From a virus (Duplodnaviria > Caudoviricetes), in the IMG/VR virus record IMGVR_UViG_3300012166_000006, positions 1 to 32,666 of that record: a DNA stretch of 32,666 bases; one strand, given 5' to 3'. Positions 1,069 to 22,156 of the stretch are shown here, in pieces. Under the pieces are notes generated by a model, which did no database searches, was not told the DNA's origin, and was given only the letters and a program-made list of their open reading frames with translations. The number at the start of each line of letters is the position of its first letter. The first letter of the stretch is position 1. Position numbers and translations under genes: made by a program.

Positions 1069-1202
1069 ATCAACAGAAACAACATAACCCATCCGGTCAT
1101 GGCAAAGGCCGATGGCATGATACTGAGACACTAATTAAATCTCGTAAGAAACGAGATAAAAAGAATAAAGCACAGAAGGAAGCTAGGAAACGTAACAGAT
1201 GA
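1065..1202 (+). CDS. Small basic hypothetical protein (45 aa, not in the ORF track)
   Basis: MNQQKQHNPSGHGKGRWHDTETLIKSRKKRDKKNKAQKEARKRNR*. ATGA overlaps with both neighbours fill the gap exactly. Confidence 0.7.
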   Translation: MNQQKQHNPSGHGKGRWHDTETLIKSRKKRDKKNKAQKEARKRNR

Positions 1203-1399
1203 ATAGACGTGATTTCATCAAAAATGTCCTAGTAACTACTATTGGCATGTCTTCTATAGCTTTAGTGAATGAGCAGAAGATAATTGATGAAACAAGTCAT
1301 ATGAGTGATGTAGAGTTTGAATATTACATCACAACTAATATTAGACTATATGTGGATAATCCACGATATTGTGCAGTGATAACAAACATCGGTGAATAG
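1199..1399 (+). CDS. Small protein with twin-arginine (Tat-like) N-terminus and major-capsid-like C-terminal segment
   Basis: MNRRDFIK followed by a hydrophobic stretch. C-terminal YYITTNIRLYVDNPRYCAVITNI aligns without gaps to the capsid C-terminus FYMVNGMQTFVNNPAATAYIDNL. Confidence 0.7.
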   Translation: MNRRDFIKNVLVTTIGMSSIALVNEQKIIDETSHMSDVEFEYYITTNIRLYVDNPRYCAVITNIGE

Positions 1400-2607: not shown

Positions 2608-2807
2608 CTGGAAAAATCGCTCGCAAAGTTAAGGATAAGGGATTTGGTTTCATTCAGTCTACTGAAGATGGAAAAGATTATTTCTTCCATCATACTGGAT
2701 GTGATTATCCCTTCGATTCATTACAGGAAGGAGATACTGTAGAGTTTGAAATGGAGAGAAATCCTAAAGGGCCACGCGCTAATCATGTAAGGCCAATCAA
2801 TGCCTAA
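2604..2807 (+). CDS. csp: Cold-shock domain protein (CspA family)
   Basis: 67 aa with RNP1 KGFGFI, RNP2 YFFH and LQEGDTVEFE...KGPRANHV. AAGGAG RBS. Confidence 0.95.
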   Translation: MTGKIARKVKDKGFGFIQSTEDGKDYFFHHTGCDYPFDSLQEGDTVEFEMERNPKGPRANHVRPINA

Positions 2808-3207
2808 AACAAACTTCATTCTATATAATCCTAACTATCATGAAGCTGTGAGAGAAACCAGTATCCTAGCTGATGATGTGAGTGATGGGCATCACACGAT
2901 GTCTGAGCTCTATCAACATAGACATGCACTGTTTATTGCATTGTGCAAAGTCTATGATAACTATATCACACCCCTTCAGTCGCGGGTGAAATGCTGGAAA
3001 TCTAAATTACACGATGATGGAACCATGTTCGATGGATGGTTCATCCTCGGAATGACTGTTTTTGAATTTACAGGTCCTACTACTACGATTACTTACCATC
3101 TTCCTATGACCCACTGGAATAGGATTAATGTAATGGAAATTCCTAACGCACCACCGTGGGACGGGCATACTTCTGACGATGTTCTTCTGAGACTCTATAA
3201 ACTATGA
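2800..3207 (+). CDS. WDGH-motif phage protein
   Basis: SDGHHTMSELYQHR...WKSKLHDDG...ITYHLP...APPWDGHT, a conserved phage family of unknown function. Confidence 0.75.
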   Translation: MPKTNFILYNPNYHEAVRETSILADDVSDGHHTMSELYQHRHALFIALCKVYDNYITPLQSRVKCWKSKLHDDGTMFDGWFILGMTVFEFTGPTTTITYHLPMTHWNRINVMEIPNAPPWDGHTSDDVLLRLYKL

Positions 3208-3986
3208 GAAGGTGGAAATATATGGGAGAACAAGTCTTAGACCACGGCTATGTCAGTCTAGTAGAGACATGGGGTTCTGATAAGACCATTATCGAATCTG
3301 CTAGAATGTCTACTGGTAAGGGATTCCTTGGATGGGGTCCAATGCATAAAACTGATTGTCCCCGTCGTCAAATGCTAGGCTCAGGAGTAAGAGTAGCATG
3401 TGACTGCAAAGAACCTGGAGATGAAAAACTCCTAGCCTATCTTTACAAACATCATCATACTACTCCATTTGAAATGGCAGGAGCTACATTTGAAATTCAA
3501 GCTCCTATCTTTGTATTCAGAGAGTGGCATCGCCATCGGACTCAATCTTATAATGAGATGAGTGCTCGATATATTCCACTTCCTGATATTAGTTATATGC
3601 CTACCATCGAAAGACTTCAAATGGAAGGCGGTGCTAATAAACAAGCTCAGGGTTCAGGTAAAGTAACCAATGCAATAGCTACTAACTTCCAGAGTGACTT
3701 GGAAGAATTCTATATCACAGTAGAACGTATTTATCAGGAAGCCCTGAGAAATGGAATTCCAAAGGAATTAGCTAGATTAGTTCTTCCTGTAAGTCGATAC
3801 AGCAGAATGAGAGCTAGTGCTAATCTTCTGAACTGGATTAGATTCTTACGCCTTCGTGCGGCGCCTAATGCTCAATGGGAAATCCAGCAATACGCTAATC
3901 AAGTATCAATTCAATTAGAACAGAAGTTCCCTCGCACTATGCACCTATTCTTGGAGGAACAAGATGAGCACGGACGAACAAGCTAG
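3204..3986 (+). CDS. thyX: FAD-dependent thymidylate synthase ThyX
   Basis: VLDHGYVSLV, HTTPFEM, APIFVFREWHRHRTQSYNEMSARY (RHRx7S motif), ELARLVLP, LRAAPNAQWEIQQYA. Confidence 0.96.
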   Translation: MRRWKYMGEQVLDHGYVSLVETWGSDKTIIESARMSTGKGFLGWGPMHKTDCPRRQMLGSGVRVACDCKEPGDEKLLAYLYKHHHTTPFEMAGATFEIQAPIFVFREWHRHRTQSYNEMSARYIPLPDISYMPTIERLQMEGGANKQAQGSGKVTNAIATNFQSDLEEFYITVERIYQEALRNGIPKELARLVLPVSRYSRMRASANLLNWIRFLRLRAAPNAQWEIQQYANQVSIQLEQKFPRTMHLFLEEQDEHGRTS

Positions 3987-4554: not shown

Positions 4555-6690
4555 CTAATTGTCACCGTAGCGTTGCATACCCATACCGAAGAACGAAGGT
4601 GCGGCTGCTGGGAGATTTTCAGGATGAATATTGCCACCAATAAGGTCTGCGATTCCTGGTAATAATTCAGGATTCTCAGATGCTAATTCGATTACATCCT
4701 GCACAAAGATGGGGACGAACCTCTTAGCAACTTCGTCAGGAACATTAAAGGGTTGACCTGCTAGGTCTTTACCTCGCAATAGTCCTGTAGCGAAGTTAAT
4801 AATGGGGTTCGCCTTCCCCTCTAAAAATCTACCTGCTACGTCCAATCTGGATGAGCCCCCGTATTTCTCACCTAAGAAATATTCAGTTCCTTTTACGGAA
4901 CTCTTGAACTTACCACCCTGAGAACCTAACATTCCAGCAGCCATATCAAAGGGGGCAATACCTGTATCAGTGCCCTCCATTGATTCTATTCTGGCTTCTC
5001 TGGGACGTAAGATTCTATTGGCTGCAACGATATACTGTTGTGCGCCAGCCCAAGGGTCTAGTCTCACATTACCAATTTTAATCTTGCCGAAGTCACTACT
5101 AGCTGGGTCACTCTCTACTTCTGCTCCACCCATTTTAGCAAGTCCTACCATTGCATTGCCTGCGCCCGCTAATGCAAGTAATGACTTAATAGCTTCCTTC
5201 CTAGTGAATGAATCAGTCTTAGGATTAATGTATGTATAGGGGTTAAGAATCTTTACTCTGCTGGCGATTAGCCGAGGGGCAAAGAATGTGCTATTGAGAA
5301 TTACGGCTGCACGTTCTGCCTTACCGAGACTACCACGCCCAGACGAGTAGTTAACGAAATCAGCAAGTGAACGCGCCAGTGGTAGATTAGTCTCTCCGTC
5401 AGCACCAAACACCTTACCATCTCGCACTAAATTCTCAAATGTATCTGCACGAAGCTTATTTAAGAATGCTGTATATGCTCTATTACTACGCCGCACACCT
5501 GGAACCTTCTCAGCCCAGGTAGACATAACAGCTTCTTCTCTACTACTTAAATCAGTAAGGTCAGTAAGTTTTAATCCAGCATCATCAGCGAAGGACGGTA
5601 ATGTAGTATTACCAGGCCCAACGCGAGGCTTAAATAATGGCTTATCAGCAATAGACTGCTGAATACCCTGAAATGCTTCCTCAGAACCCCAGGCTTTAAC
5701 CATACCAGGTAGAGCTTTCCAAAATCCTCCCTTATGGATTAGTGGAAGTCCCTGACGTAATGGAGCAGACATATCAACACTCGCCATTACAGCGCGTGGA
5801 AAGTTAACTGCTTCTACAACAGGATTAGATTTCTTTACGTCAGTCTTTGGACCTAATGTTCCTCTAGGTCTAGCTTGTCCTACTTCTGATTCTAAGATAG
5901 GCTGTTCTCCAGGTTTCCCTTCATAACGAATTTTGAACTTACCATCTTCCGTTAATGAATCGAATACCCAACCTTGTTCTTTAGCTTTCTTAATAATCTC
6001 AGGAGTAGCTTGTCTAAGAGTTACCTTCTGACCTACTTTTGGTGCACCAGCAACTTCAGCAGCTGCTGTAGGCGTGGCTAAATCAGCAGGCATCTCTCCA
6101 GTAACTTTACCAACTTTAGGTATGTTACCCTTCATTCCTAATACACCACCAGCCATCTCTACGCCACCCATAGCGCGGTCAGCAAGTGTAGAATCAGGGT
6201 CTAATACATTGGATGCACCATGAGCAGCAGTTAATCCCCCCGCAGCTTTGGCACCCATACCAACAGCTTTAGCAATAGCAGGTAAACCAGCTTTAGCAGC
6301 AGTTCCTTGTCCAGCAGTTAAAATAGCAGTAGCAAGGTTAATAGGTGAAGTAAGACCAGATACCAAATCACCAACACCTTCCAATGCACCAGCACCAAAT
6401 CCTTTAGCTTTGGCAAGTGTAGTTTTAAGGTAGTCACTTACTCCCCCTTCGCCAGTAGGAGCCATAGACAATGATGGAGCATCTATATCTCCACTAAAGC
6501 TACGAATGAATCTAGACGGAGCATCAGTTAATGGTTCGGATATCATATCCCAACCACGTCCTAGTAGTCCTTTTTCTTCAGGAACTACAGGTGTGGTAGG
6601 CGTAGTGGTAATAGGTGTAGTAGTGGGAACATCTTCCCAATCTACATCTTCCCACTCGTCATCTTTAGTTACTTTTTGACTGGCTGCCAT
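4555..6690 (-). CDS. Internal virion / DNA ejection protein (large)
   Basis: 711 aa, Ala/Gly-rich amphipathic helices, acidic DDEWEDVDWEDV N-terminus. Last of three ejection-type genes after the tail module. Confidence 0.6.
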   Translation of the reverse strand: MAASQKVTKDDEWEDVDWEDVPTTTPITTTPTTPVVPEEKGLLGRGWDMISEPLTDAPSRFIRSFSGDIDAPSLSMAPTGEGGVSDYLKTTLAKAKGFGAGALEGVGDLVSGLTSPINLATAILTAGQGTAAKAGLPAIAKAVGMGAKAAGGLTAAHGASNVLDPDSTLADRAMGGVEMAGGVLGMKGNIPKVGKVTGEMPADLATPTAAAEVAGAPKVGQKVTLRQATPEIIKKAKEQGWVFDSLTEDGKFKIRYEGKPGEQPILESEVGQARPRGTLGPKTDVKKSNPVVEAVNFPRAVMASVDMSAPLRQGLPLIHKGGFWKALPGMVKAWGSEEAFQGIQQSIADKPLFKPRVGPGNTTLPSFADDAGLKLTDLTDLSSREEAVMSTWAEKVPGVRRSNRAYTAFLNKLRADTFENLVRDGKVFGADGETNLPLARSLADFVNYSSGRGSLGKAERAAVILNSTFFAPRLIASRVKILNPYTYINPKTDSFTRKEAIKSLLALAGAGNAMVGLAKMGGAEVESDPASSDFGKIKIGNVRLDPWAGAQQYIVAANRILRPREARIESMEGTDTGIAPFDMAAGMLGSQGGKFKSSVKGTEYFLGEKYGGSSRLDVAGRFLEGKANPIINFATGLLRGKDLAGQPFNVPDEVAKRFVPIFVQDVIELASENPELLPGIADLIGGNIHPENLPAAAPSFFGMGMQRYGDN

Positions 6691-20896: not shown

Positions 20897-22156
20897 TCAG
20901 TATCCAGCCGGAACCGCAAGATTATCGATATAGGCAGTGGCAGCAGGATTATTCACGAACGTCTGCATACCATTGACCATATAGAAGATATCTGCGGCGG
21001 CCACACCACCTGAAGAACTGCGGATTTCAAAGATATTCCTACCATCGGTCTTGTAGAAACCAATGGGAAGAATCTCACCGCGGCCCCACACTTCGTCAGA
21101 GACAAAGTCAATACGAGTTTTATCCCAGTTGAAAGATGGCTTGTCGGGAGCGCCCGCAAACTGCATCTTATCGAAATACATGTTCAGTGAGCCCTCACCC
21201 TTACCATTGTTATTGGGCTGCTGAATCATAATCATTGCCTGACCAATATCCTCATACGCCTGCTTCTGCGCGGGATGGAGCCAAGCATTTAACTTAAAAC
21301 TATTATCGATACCGACACGGTTGCCGATAGCGTTAACAGCCAATCGCGGTAACGGGAGACTCAGTGCCGAGCCACCAGCATTAACACGATTGCTACGAAT
21401 TTCCGGCGTAGCAGCACGGCTGAATCCTAACCAGGTTCCAGTCGATGCATTGCTGTGGTGATAGGGCACACCAAACAGTGCCGGCAGGGAGTTAGGCGAA
21501 CTAATACCATCAACCACAATCTTATCAGTGGCCGTAGCACCAGCAACAGCCGGTGTAACGTCGATGATTTTATTCGCAACGTCCCACTTAGTAATGACTC
21601 CCTTACCACGAAGGGTTGCGAGAGTCGTATCGTATACCTGAACCGTCTGGCCGTAACGCACAAGACGTGCGCCAAAACCATCATCGTCCAGAGTATAAGT
21701 ATCGACACCAGCCGCAGTAGAAACTGCTGAAATGACGCCAACGACGCCATTACCAGCCTGCATTAACTGGCTATCCAACTGACGACGTAATTCATCTAAT
21801 GCAGTAGCCGTCAGACGGCGAACAGCATTAGTGATAGCCTTACGGTCGTTATCAGTTGACCACTGAGTTAACTTAGTGTATTCGATGTTCTCGGACACGA
21901 ACACACAAGTTAAGACAGCCTTATCCCAAGTAGGACCGCCGCCCCGTCCCAGGTCGCCCCCGTTAGGGTCGAAATACTGGAAACTACCACCGGGACGCAG
22001 TTCCAATGGAACGCGCATCTGTCGATTCGAGATAACTTCTACGTCACGCTTCTTGATGTTAGCGTAGAATTTATCATCGCGCTCGAACAATACGCGAATC
22101 TTGGGAATCACTTTCTCCAGCTCTAAAGCTGTGACTTGTGATTCAACAACTGCCAC
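20897..22156 (-). CDS. Major capsid protein (HK97 fold)
   Basis: 419 aa after the scaffold gene. GTG start with TAAGGAG RBS, biased codon usage, ELRRQLDSQLMQAGNG spine helix and C-terminal NNPAATAYIDNL. Confidence 0.88.
   Translation of the reverse strand: MAVVESQVTALELEKVIPKIRVLFERDDKFYANIKKRDVEVISNRQMRVPLELRPGGSFQYFDPNGGDLGRGGGPTWDKAVLTCVFVSENIEYTKLTQWSTDNDRKAITNAVRRLTATALDELRRQLDSQLMQAGNGVVGVISAVSTAAGVDTYTLDDDGFGARLVRYGQTVQVYDTTLATLRGKGVITKWDVANKIIDVTPAVAGATATDKIVVDGISSPNSLPALFGVPYHHSNASTGTWLGFSRAATPEIRSNRVNAGGSALSLPLPRLAVNAIGNRVGIDNSFKLNAWLHPAQKQAYEDIGQAMIMIQQPNNNGKGEGSLNMYFDKMQFAGAPDKPSFNWDKTRIDFVSDEVWGRGEILPIGFYKTDGRNIFEIRSSSGGVAAADIFYMVNGMQTFVNNPAATAYIDNLAVPAGY

Follow-up and report, generated by a model that had tools for sequence, protein, structure and literature searches.

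Why would a phage carry, in a small gene among its non-structural genes, a segment that resembles the C-terminus of its own major capsid protein and is fused to a twin-arginine-type leader? The question is raised by an ORF at positions 1199-1399 (+ strand) of a virus DNA record of 32,666 bases, which was analyzed over its whole length and is referred to below as the window. The product is a 66-aa microprotein that begins MNRRDFIK and in which an acidic linker connects a twin-arginine leader to a segment matching the capsid C-terminus; it belongs to a group of homologues here called family A.

Genomic setting and capsid match of the microprotein gene

The + strand of the window carries a primase-like gene, a gene for the thymidylate synthase ThyX, a cold-shock domain gene and small accessory genes, and the − strand carries the terminase, portal, probable scaffold and capsid genes. 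The microprotein gene shares an accessory block with the cold-shock domain gene (PF00313, positions 2604-2807), a WDGH domain gene (PF25311, positions 2800-3207) and the ThyX gene (PF02511, positions 3204-3986). Its start codon and the stop codon of a 45-aa basic ORF (1065-1202, + strand) overlap as ATGA, an AGGA sequence lies 10 nt 5′ of the ATG, and a tRNA-Leu(TAA) gene (1406-1490, + strand) follows directly downstream. Two genes upstream (856-1068, + strand) lies a gene that an initial annotation of this DNA had called an anti-defence-like sponge, and a match to PF24729 (E = 1.4e-17) identified it as an Acb2/Tad1 hairpin (sponge-like) gene. That this neighbor is a meaningful partner of the microprotein gene was not borne out, as inspection by eye placed the Acb2/Tad1 gene after the primase gene also in relatives that lack family A. 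An optional gene located two genes past Acb2/Tad1, in a non-structural and anti-defence setting, is weakly marked by its position as an anti-defence decoy.

Strand and neighbors, and only these, suggest that the microprotein gene is expressed early. A promoter scan gave 8 matches against 11.8 in shuffled sequences, i.e. no excess, and a single RNA run, in which a fraction of 0.07 of the sampled words was present and no contig spanned positions 1070-1393, was uninformative on expression. One protein of 186 aa (P0175), encoded on a single 1003-bp contig, runs through the microprotein stop codon, across the tRNA gene and into the ORF at 1496-1759; it is likely a sequence error or a rare variant.

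The major capsid protein of the window (419 aa, SU10/podovirus-like group) is encoded at 20897-22156 (− strand), after the terminase, portal and probable scaffold genes. It matched phrog_14242 (major head) weakly (E = 1.3e-5) and NF033394 with E = 5.7e-7, which is below the cut-off of that model, and SU10_MCP was found on 12% of the members of a neighboring Atlas cluster. BLASTP aligned microprotein residues 42-65 (1322-1393, + strand) with capsid residues 391-414 (20915-20986, − strand) at E = 0.002, and exactly reproduced the ungapped alignment proposed in the initial annotation, with 7/24 residues identical and 14/24 positive. The two DNA segments are identical at 30/72 nt, with 13, 11 and 6 identities at codon positions 1, 2 and 3, respectively, from which it follows that the conserved level is protein sequence. 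Among the 108 ORFs of the window, the capsid protein was the best non-self match of the microprotein (score 43, the next being 38), with p = 0.0026 in a test of 5000 shuffles. Of the 270 pairs of a small and a large gene in the window, 3 others did at least as well by p value, so the single pair is only suggestive.

Homologues were therefore considered as a family, gathered without regard to the capsid. A phmmer search over 1.84 billion representatives returned 33 proteins of 61-141 aa at E ≤ 0.001, and loci of related phages supplied 3 further members. A profile search of 1399 candidates then recovered 26 proteins, of which 16 were new, and brought family A to 52 distinct sequences of similar length and layout. 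When a family A profile (37 sequences) was compared by hhalign with a 61-sequence capsid profile, the last 30 columns matched with a probability of 91.6, E = 8.3e-7 and a score of 45.3, far above column shuffles (mean 12.9, maximum 21.4; 0/200 reached 45.3). The match was unchanged when the query was left out, and was recovered at E = 7.3e-6 with a second capsid alignment of 30 sequences. The pattern VxNPxxxAxIxN was likewise kept; in the 37 aligned sequences its positions were occupied by V in 23 (I in 10), N in 33, P in 37, A in 21 (G in 8), I in 37 and N in 22. Neither of the outcomes that the initial annotation had named as fatal to its claim, a profile match at the level of shuffles and a pattern lost among homologues, was thus obtained.

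Further searches pointed the same way. The homologues keep NP-x-x-C-A-x-I, and several run on in register with the terminal I-P-x-G/K-Y of the capsid, which the query lacks. When the 499 segments of the window were scored with a profile of the C-terminal 27 columns, the capsid came second only to the microprotein gene (iE 0.0017, against 1.3 for the next segment). A DNA pattern made from the C-terminal motif alone matched 14 metagenome stretches: four family A genes (two distinct types), one leader gene with two joined capsid pieces, two true capsid C-termini (L181 and L182, the former a phrog_1328 major head protein at E = 2e-35), three small ORFs that lack a leader and end in the motif, and four unrelated stretches. 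Direct matches to PF17236 and NF033394 were weak (1/37 family A members each). Taken at the family level, these profile comparisons make the capsid homology of the microprotein clear, and they confine it to the C-terminal 24-30 residues. Leaderless small ORFs whose end is the capsid C-terminal motif lie on other phage-like contigs (L177:2722-2940, L178:1652-2128 and L189).

The possibility that the segment tracks the capsid of its own phage was rejected: for four genomes that carry the two genes, the phage's own capsid was outscored by 10-42 of the 71 capsids of the clade. Family A profile scores had a median of 14.8 bits and a maximum of 31.2 bits over the clade capsids, and reached 27.7 bits with the distant capsid L181. 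The absence of tracking suggests that the family A segment derives from an old capture of capsid sequence and has probably evolved independently since.

Leader, linker and predicted structure

The leader (residues 1-24; 1199-1270, + strand) contains an RRxFIK motif followed by a run of 16 uncharged residues and has no AxA site. Tat h-regions comprise about 13 uncharged residues or more by a TatFind-like rule, and a polar c-region with an AxA signal peptidase site is usual, although not universal, in Tat substrates. The run has a family median of 12 residues, at least 13 being found in 21/51 members, and 3/51 members have an AxA site. Of the initial claim of a Tat-like signal, the motif itself held: RR lies within the first 35 residues in 51/52 members, with F three places past the first R in 50/51 and K/R five places past it in 48/51, and the microprotein (NRRDFIK) matches the consensus S-R-R-x-F-L-K given in the available part of PMC5539426. 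Beyond the motif the signal is less typical: the hydrophobic run, 16 residues long in this protein, is short in most members, and the cleavage site is missing in 48/51. PF10518 matched 19/37 family members at E ≤ 0.1 (best 5.6e-5) and gave no match for the window protein; TIGR01409 matched 11/37, with the window protein at E = 0.054 and 13.9 bits against a cut-off of 16.7 bits. The conserved RR motif and mostly missing AxA site imply that the receptor-binding motif is kept and that a cleaved export signal is not evident.

Residues 25-41 (1271-1321, + strand) form an acidic linker, predicted to be an amphipathic helix, with a family-specific D-x-x-F motif and a median family charge of −4; it is not capsid-derived. 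In the 37-row alignment, R3, F6, P55 and I61 are invariant, and R4, D37, F40 and I64 are at least 90% conserved. Family A thus resembles the Tat signal peptides of PF10518 and TIGR01409 in its N-terminal RRxF(L/I)(K/R) and the uncharged, moderately hydrophobic run that follows, but differs in that the run is mostly short and that a cleavage motif is absent, an acidic linker present and the passenger tiny and capsid-derived. Its last 24-30 residues are homologous to the C-terminus of SU10/podovirus-like capsids (PF17236, NF033394, phrog_14242 and phrog_1328), but the microprotein corresponds to about 7% of such a capsid, lies on the non-structural strand, is optional and has an unrelated leader fused to it. 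As a full-length HK97-fold capsid it fails, with its 66 aa, a helical model without a capsid match and a strand opposite to that of the head genes. Not being a capsid protein and failing parts of the Tat-substrate test, the microprotein was assigned to neither class.

The AlphaFold model of the microprotein has four helices (pLDDT 77, pTM 0.58), with residues 37-53 helical and 54-66 mostly coil. This helix conflicts with the hydropathy of the family, which at residues 42-53 alternates as in a strand (moment 1.74 at 170° versus 0.65 at 100°); column hydropathy also correlates with that of the capsid segment (r = 0.60), which is presumably a strand in HK97-type capsids. Nothing matched the microprotein model in a Foldseek search at E ≤ 0.001. 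The predicted capsid model was of low confidence (pLDDT 47.6, about 30 at the C-terminus), too low for the segment to be located on it, and a fold search with that model was meaningless.

Whole-protein searches of Pfam, PHROG, PADLOC and PDB sequences assigned no family to the microprotein, a word-indexed protein search with its sequence alone returned nothing, and a single-sequence Atlas search gave no usable feature match, its structure matches being short and helical only. Two of the three viral loci found by single-sequence search matched essentially via the leader. Prokaryotic genomes gave four matches; the contigs are 1.4-16 kb long and were binned with four unrelated taxa, and they are uninformative on the host. 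Neither the capsid (E ≤ 0.01) nor family B (see below) had any match in INPHARED phage records, and a family A query gave only 5 matches, at E 8-10. Some family A members bear a Cys-rich or basic C-terminal tail (L147:3757-4203, P0013 and P0023; 108-144 aa). A separate family of RRxF-leader phage proteins (134-169 aa) occurs on larger viral contigs (L002:5001-5510, L003:5001-5468 and L105).

Other capsid pieces in small genes of the clade

The initial annotation had asked whether other phages have genes that join an RRxF leader to a capsid fragment, and such genes were found when the capsid profile was run over 21,099 stop-to-stop segments from related loci. With leaders trimmed, 31/33 leader-bearing small ORFs matched the capsid, against 0-1/33 in ten control draws. 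At least three capsid regions stand behind RRxF leaders (about residues 3-59, 222-250/285 and 387-414). The loci were fetched partly via families A, B and C, and these counts consequently describe architecture, not prevalence.

Family B joins an RRxF/L leader and an LLWVPG motif to capsid residues of about 3-59; in two members (L019 and, with a related leader, L197) the passenger is instead capsid about 218-254. It has 751 relatives at E ≤ 0.001, and an LFERD-type capsid motif is present in 98/120 among the matches listed. One family B gene, with the leader, LLWVPG and capsid about 6-38, lies on a contig that overlaps the start of the window (L004:1876-2142, the same as L136:8139-8408). This contig shares its primase and microprotein with the window at 100% identity and extends further upstream, where it carries the gene between a cold-shock-like gene region and a DNA polymerase-like gene. 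Given this overlapping contig with family B, the window phage likely has both genes, one for the first and one for the last piece of the capsid.

Family C is leaderless, about 110 aa long, and has an unrelated core flanked by capsid residues of about 60-72 and 360-393 (L019:7533-7856, L015:8141-8473, L022:3443-3775, L107, L111, L112, L113 and L161); in L113 the two pieces are in swapped order. A complete genome (G001) contains families A, B and C plus an intact capsid gene. Other leader genes bear further or joined pieces, as judged partly by eye: L184 (ORFs 343-723 and 644-877 after orienting), L165:9989-10291 and L160:939-1280, with capsid about 222-285, with 343-352 plus the C-terminus, and with the C-terminus plus the N-terminus. 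In L184 and L165 two pieces appear, by eye, to be joined.

The capsid dominates as the source of such pieces. When 16 core-gene profiles were run against 2464 small ORFs from 69 early-region loci, 34/39 partial matches at iE < 0.1 were to the capsid; reversed sequences gave 12 matches of any kind at this threshold. Among the five non-capsid partial matches, two strong ones to the gene at 4555-6690 were read as truncated homologues, and the others, two Cys-rich (iE 0.02-0.06) and one to the terminase (iE 0.053), were also set aside. Portal or terminase pieces were not found in small ORFs of the clade. Similar leaders were observed at five distant phage loci (L168-L172), those of L171:2872-3117, L172:6361-6648 and L168:6829-7074 being of the family B type. 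The passengers of L171, L172 and L168 resemble what we take to be P22-like coat motifs, and Pfam and PHROGs gave no support for a capsid origin of the L168-L172 passengers.

Possible roles of the capsid-piece genes

In the full-text literature searched, which is mostly without subscription papers and supplementary gene tables, no phage microprotein that combines a capsid piece with a twin-arginine leader is described; the gene design is real and conserved, and apparently undescribed. Capsid proteins trigger several bacterial immune systems, according to the available parts of PMC10286901 and PMC13581612, and in the literature covered, as far as the accessible texts go, the sole phage escape from such immunity is mutation of the capsid itself. 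Several readings of the microprotein were weighed, the remaining probability being left to mechanisms not thought of.

We tentatively favor a reading in which the optional microprotein may be a membrane- or Tat-directed bait that removes capsid-sensing host proteins. It would be made ahead of the late capsid gene, to judge from strand and neighbors; its RRxF motif would engage TatBC, and its capsid segment would bind a sensor or a cofactor of that sensor. The leader, left uncleaved, might then tether the bait-sensor complex to the membrane, or it might bring the complex to the Tat machinery for hitchhiker export, either route shifting the complex out of the cytoplasmic pool so that the bait would not itself trigger defence. 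In favor of a bait are the family-level capsid homology, the capsid C-termini recovered with the DNA pattern, the several capsid regions behind leaders, the preponderance of capsid among the passengers and partial matches, and the purifying selection described below. Being generic for the clade and not matched to self, the segment suits a bait for a conserved pattern. Precedents for the separate steps come from the available portions of three papers: a 29-residue capsid region suffices for Gol-Lit recognition (PMC3014915), DSAD1 and a structural trigger compete for DSR2 (PMC10286901), and Tat exports partners that have no signal of their own (PMC4273604).

Several points argue against a bait. 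Avs7 senses the whole HK97 fold over a broad interface, reading shape and not specific contacts (PMC13581612, as far as available), and a piece of 24-30 residues cannot rebuild that fold. As the accessible text on Gol indicates, a capsid peptide can activate defence instead of blocking it. The model makes residues 37-53 and 54-66 helix and coil where family hydropathy is strand-like, the uncharged run is short in most members, an AxA site is present in 3/51, and a 51-aa family A variant with internal deletions (L194:1501-1656, − strand), decayed-looking and possibly a minimal form, has lost both the hydrophobic run and the NP motif. Full export, moreover, would put the protein across the membrane from cytoplasmic sensors.

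Two known systems are informative by comparison. DSAD1 is a small phage protein whose competition with a structural trigger for an immune sensor is the mode of action proposed for the microprotein, and the likeness considered is one of mode; DSAD1 is experimentally supported but concerns the tail tube and not the capsid, and no export leader is mentioned in the part of PMC10286901 available. T4 Gol (PMC3014915, likewise in part) is a conserved 29-residue capsid stretch recognized alone by host factors, but it belongs to the capsid protein itself and its effect is to activate defence, whereas the microprotein is a separate gene product with a leader and comes from another capsid region and family.

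A bait is one form of a broader and rather doubtful idea, in which phages of the clade would keep modular adaptors made of an export-type leader and interchangeable conserved capsid pieces from the N-terminus, internal motifs and the C-terminus, with Tat as a disposal route for sensors or for rival capsid subunits. Were it correct, the adaptors would represent counter-defence by relocalization together with a map of host-recognized capsid epitopes. A family of genes presenting defined capsid pieces after twin-arginine leaders would amount to a new type of counter-measure, or of weapon between phages, and would demonstrate that phages use the Tat pathway. The copied pieces predict which capsid stretches are important to a binding partner, and the genes, at 200-330 bp and with natural variants of both modules, make module swaps easy.

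Alternatively, the target could be the capsid itself, a conceivable but less probable arrangement in which the segment would replace the C-terminal strands of folding or unassembled subunits and the leader would take these subunits to the membrane or through Tat. The outcome would be poisoned head assembly in co-infecting relatives, or clearance of free capsid monomers that would otherwise trigger immunity. The copied pieces cover both capsid termini and conserved internal motifs, and the strand-like alternation of hydropathy and its correlation with the capsid segment fit such replacement. Mobile elements are known to interfere with tail assembly through Tai systems (PMC11364771), small accessory genes that act on virion assembly; what they block is the tail, and the available text describes neither capsid fragments nor Tat leaders. 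Against capture of subunits, the best 80 capsid matches in the clade are 68-100% identical to the window capsid, so a generic poison would likely strike the phage's own head; no counter-gene was identified, and the segment does not track its own capsid.

In an unlikely third arrangement, the leader would be the active part, binding or jamming TatBC or otherwise remodelling the envelope, and the capsid piece would be incidental recycled cargo. A nearly invariant RR and F (51/52 and 50/51), a short run and no cleavage site would fit a receptor-binding, poorly exported peptide, and the five distant loci have leaders with no capsid match in Pfam or PHROGs. Cargo of no consequence is, however, hard to reconcile with passengers that are capsid in 31/33 ORFs and come from several capsid regions, with the invariance of P55 and I61 in the passenger, and with capsid pieces that exist leaderless too (family C; L177 and L178).

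Capsid homology combined with a hydrophobic leader might also indicate a helper of the phage's own morphogenesis, either a membrane tether or a minor head component that nucleates procapsids. This is very unlikely, given that the structural genes are on the other strand and that the segment is no closer to the capsid of its own phage than to the remaining capsids of the clade. The gene is also optional: in a near-identical phage (L005), whose primase is identical over 270 residues, positions 1196-1392 are missing as a clean gene-sized gap, and the 45-aa basic ORF is retained. Among 29 genomes searched, the full capsid gene was present in 29/29 and intact family A in 3/29. In 21 near-complete relatives chosen only via capsid or primase, intact family A was found in 2/21, a version with internal deletions in 1/21 and some capsid-piece gene in 10/21.

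Substitution patterns indicate that family A is under purifying selection, a family-level result, as the test contained no close homologue of the window gene itself. Over 55 pairs, median pN was 0.42 against a median pS of 0.70, and close pairs had dN/dS of 0.07, 0.15 and 0.46 on 5-6 changes each; family B pairs listed with an estimate had dN/dS of 0.15-0.33. Whatever the function, it is an unusual route of gene birth for pieces of a capsid protein to be captured repeatedly in small genes that purifying selection then maintains. Chance resemblance or non-functional gene-shuffling debris, which would suit the marginal single pairwise match among many comparisons, the one decayed-looking copy, a close pair with 1 non-synonymous and 0 synonymous changes and another with dN/dS of 0.46 on five changes, is highly improbable and largely refuted by a profile match far over shuffles, by 52 distinct members alike in length and layout and by pN below pS family-wide.
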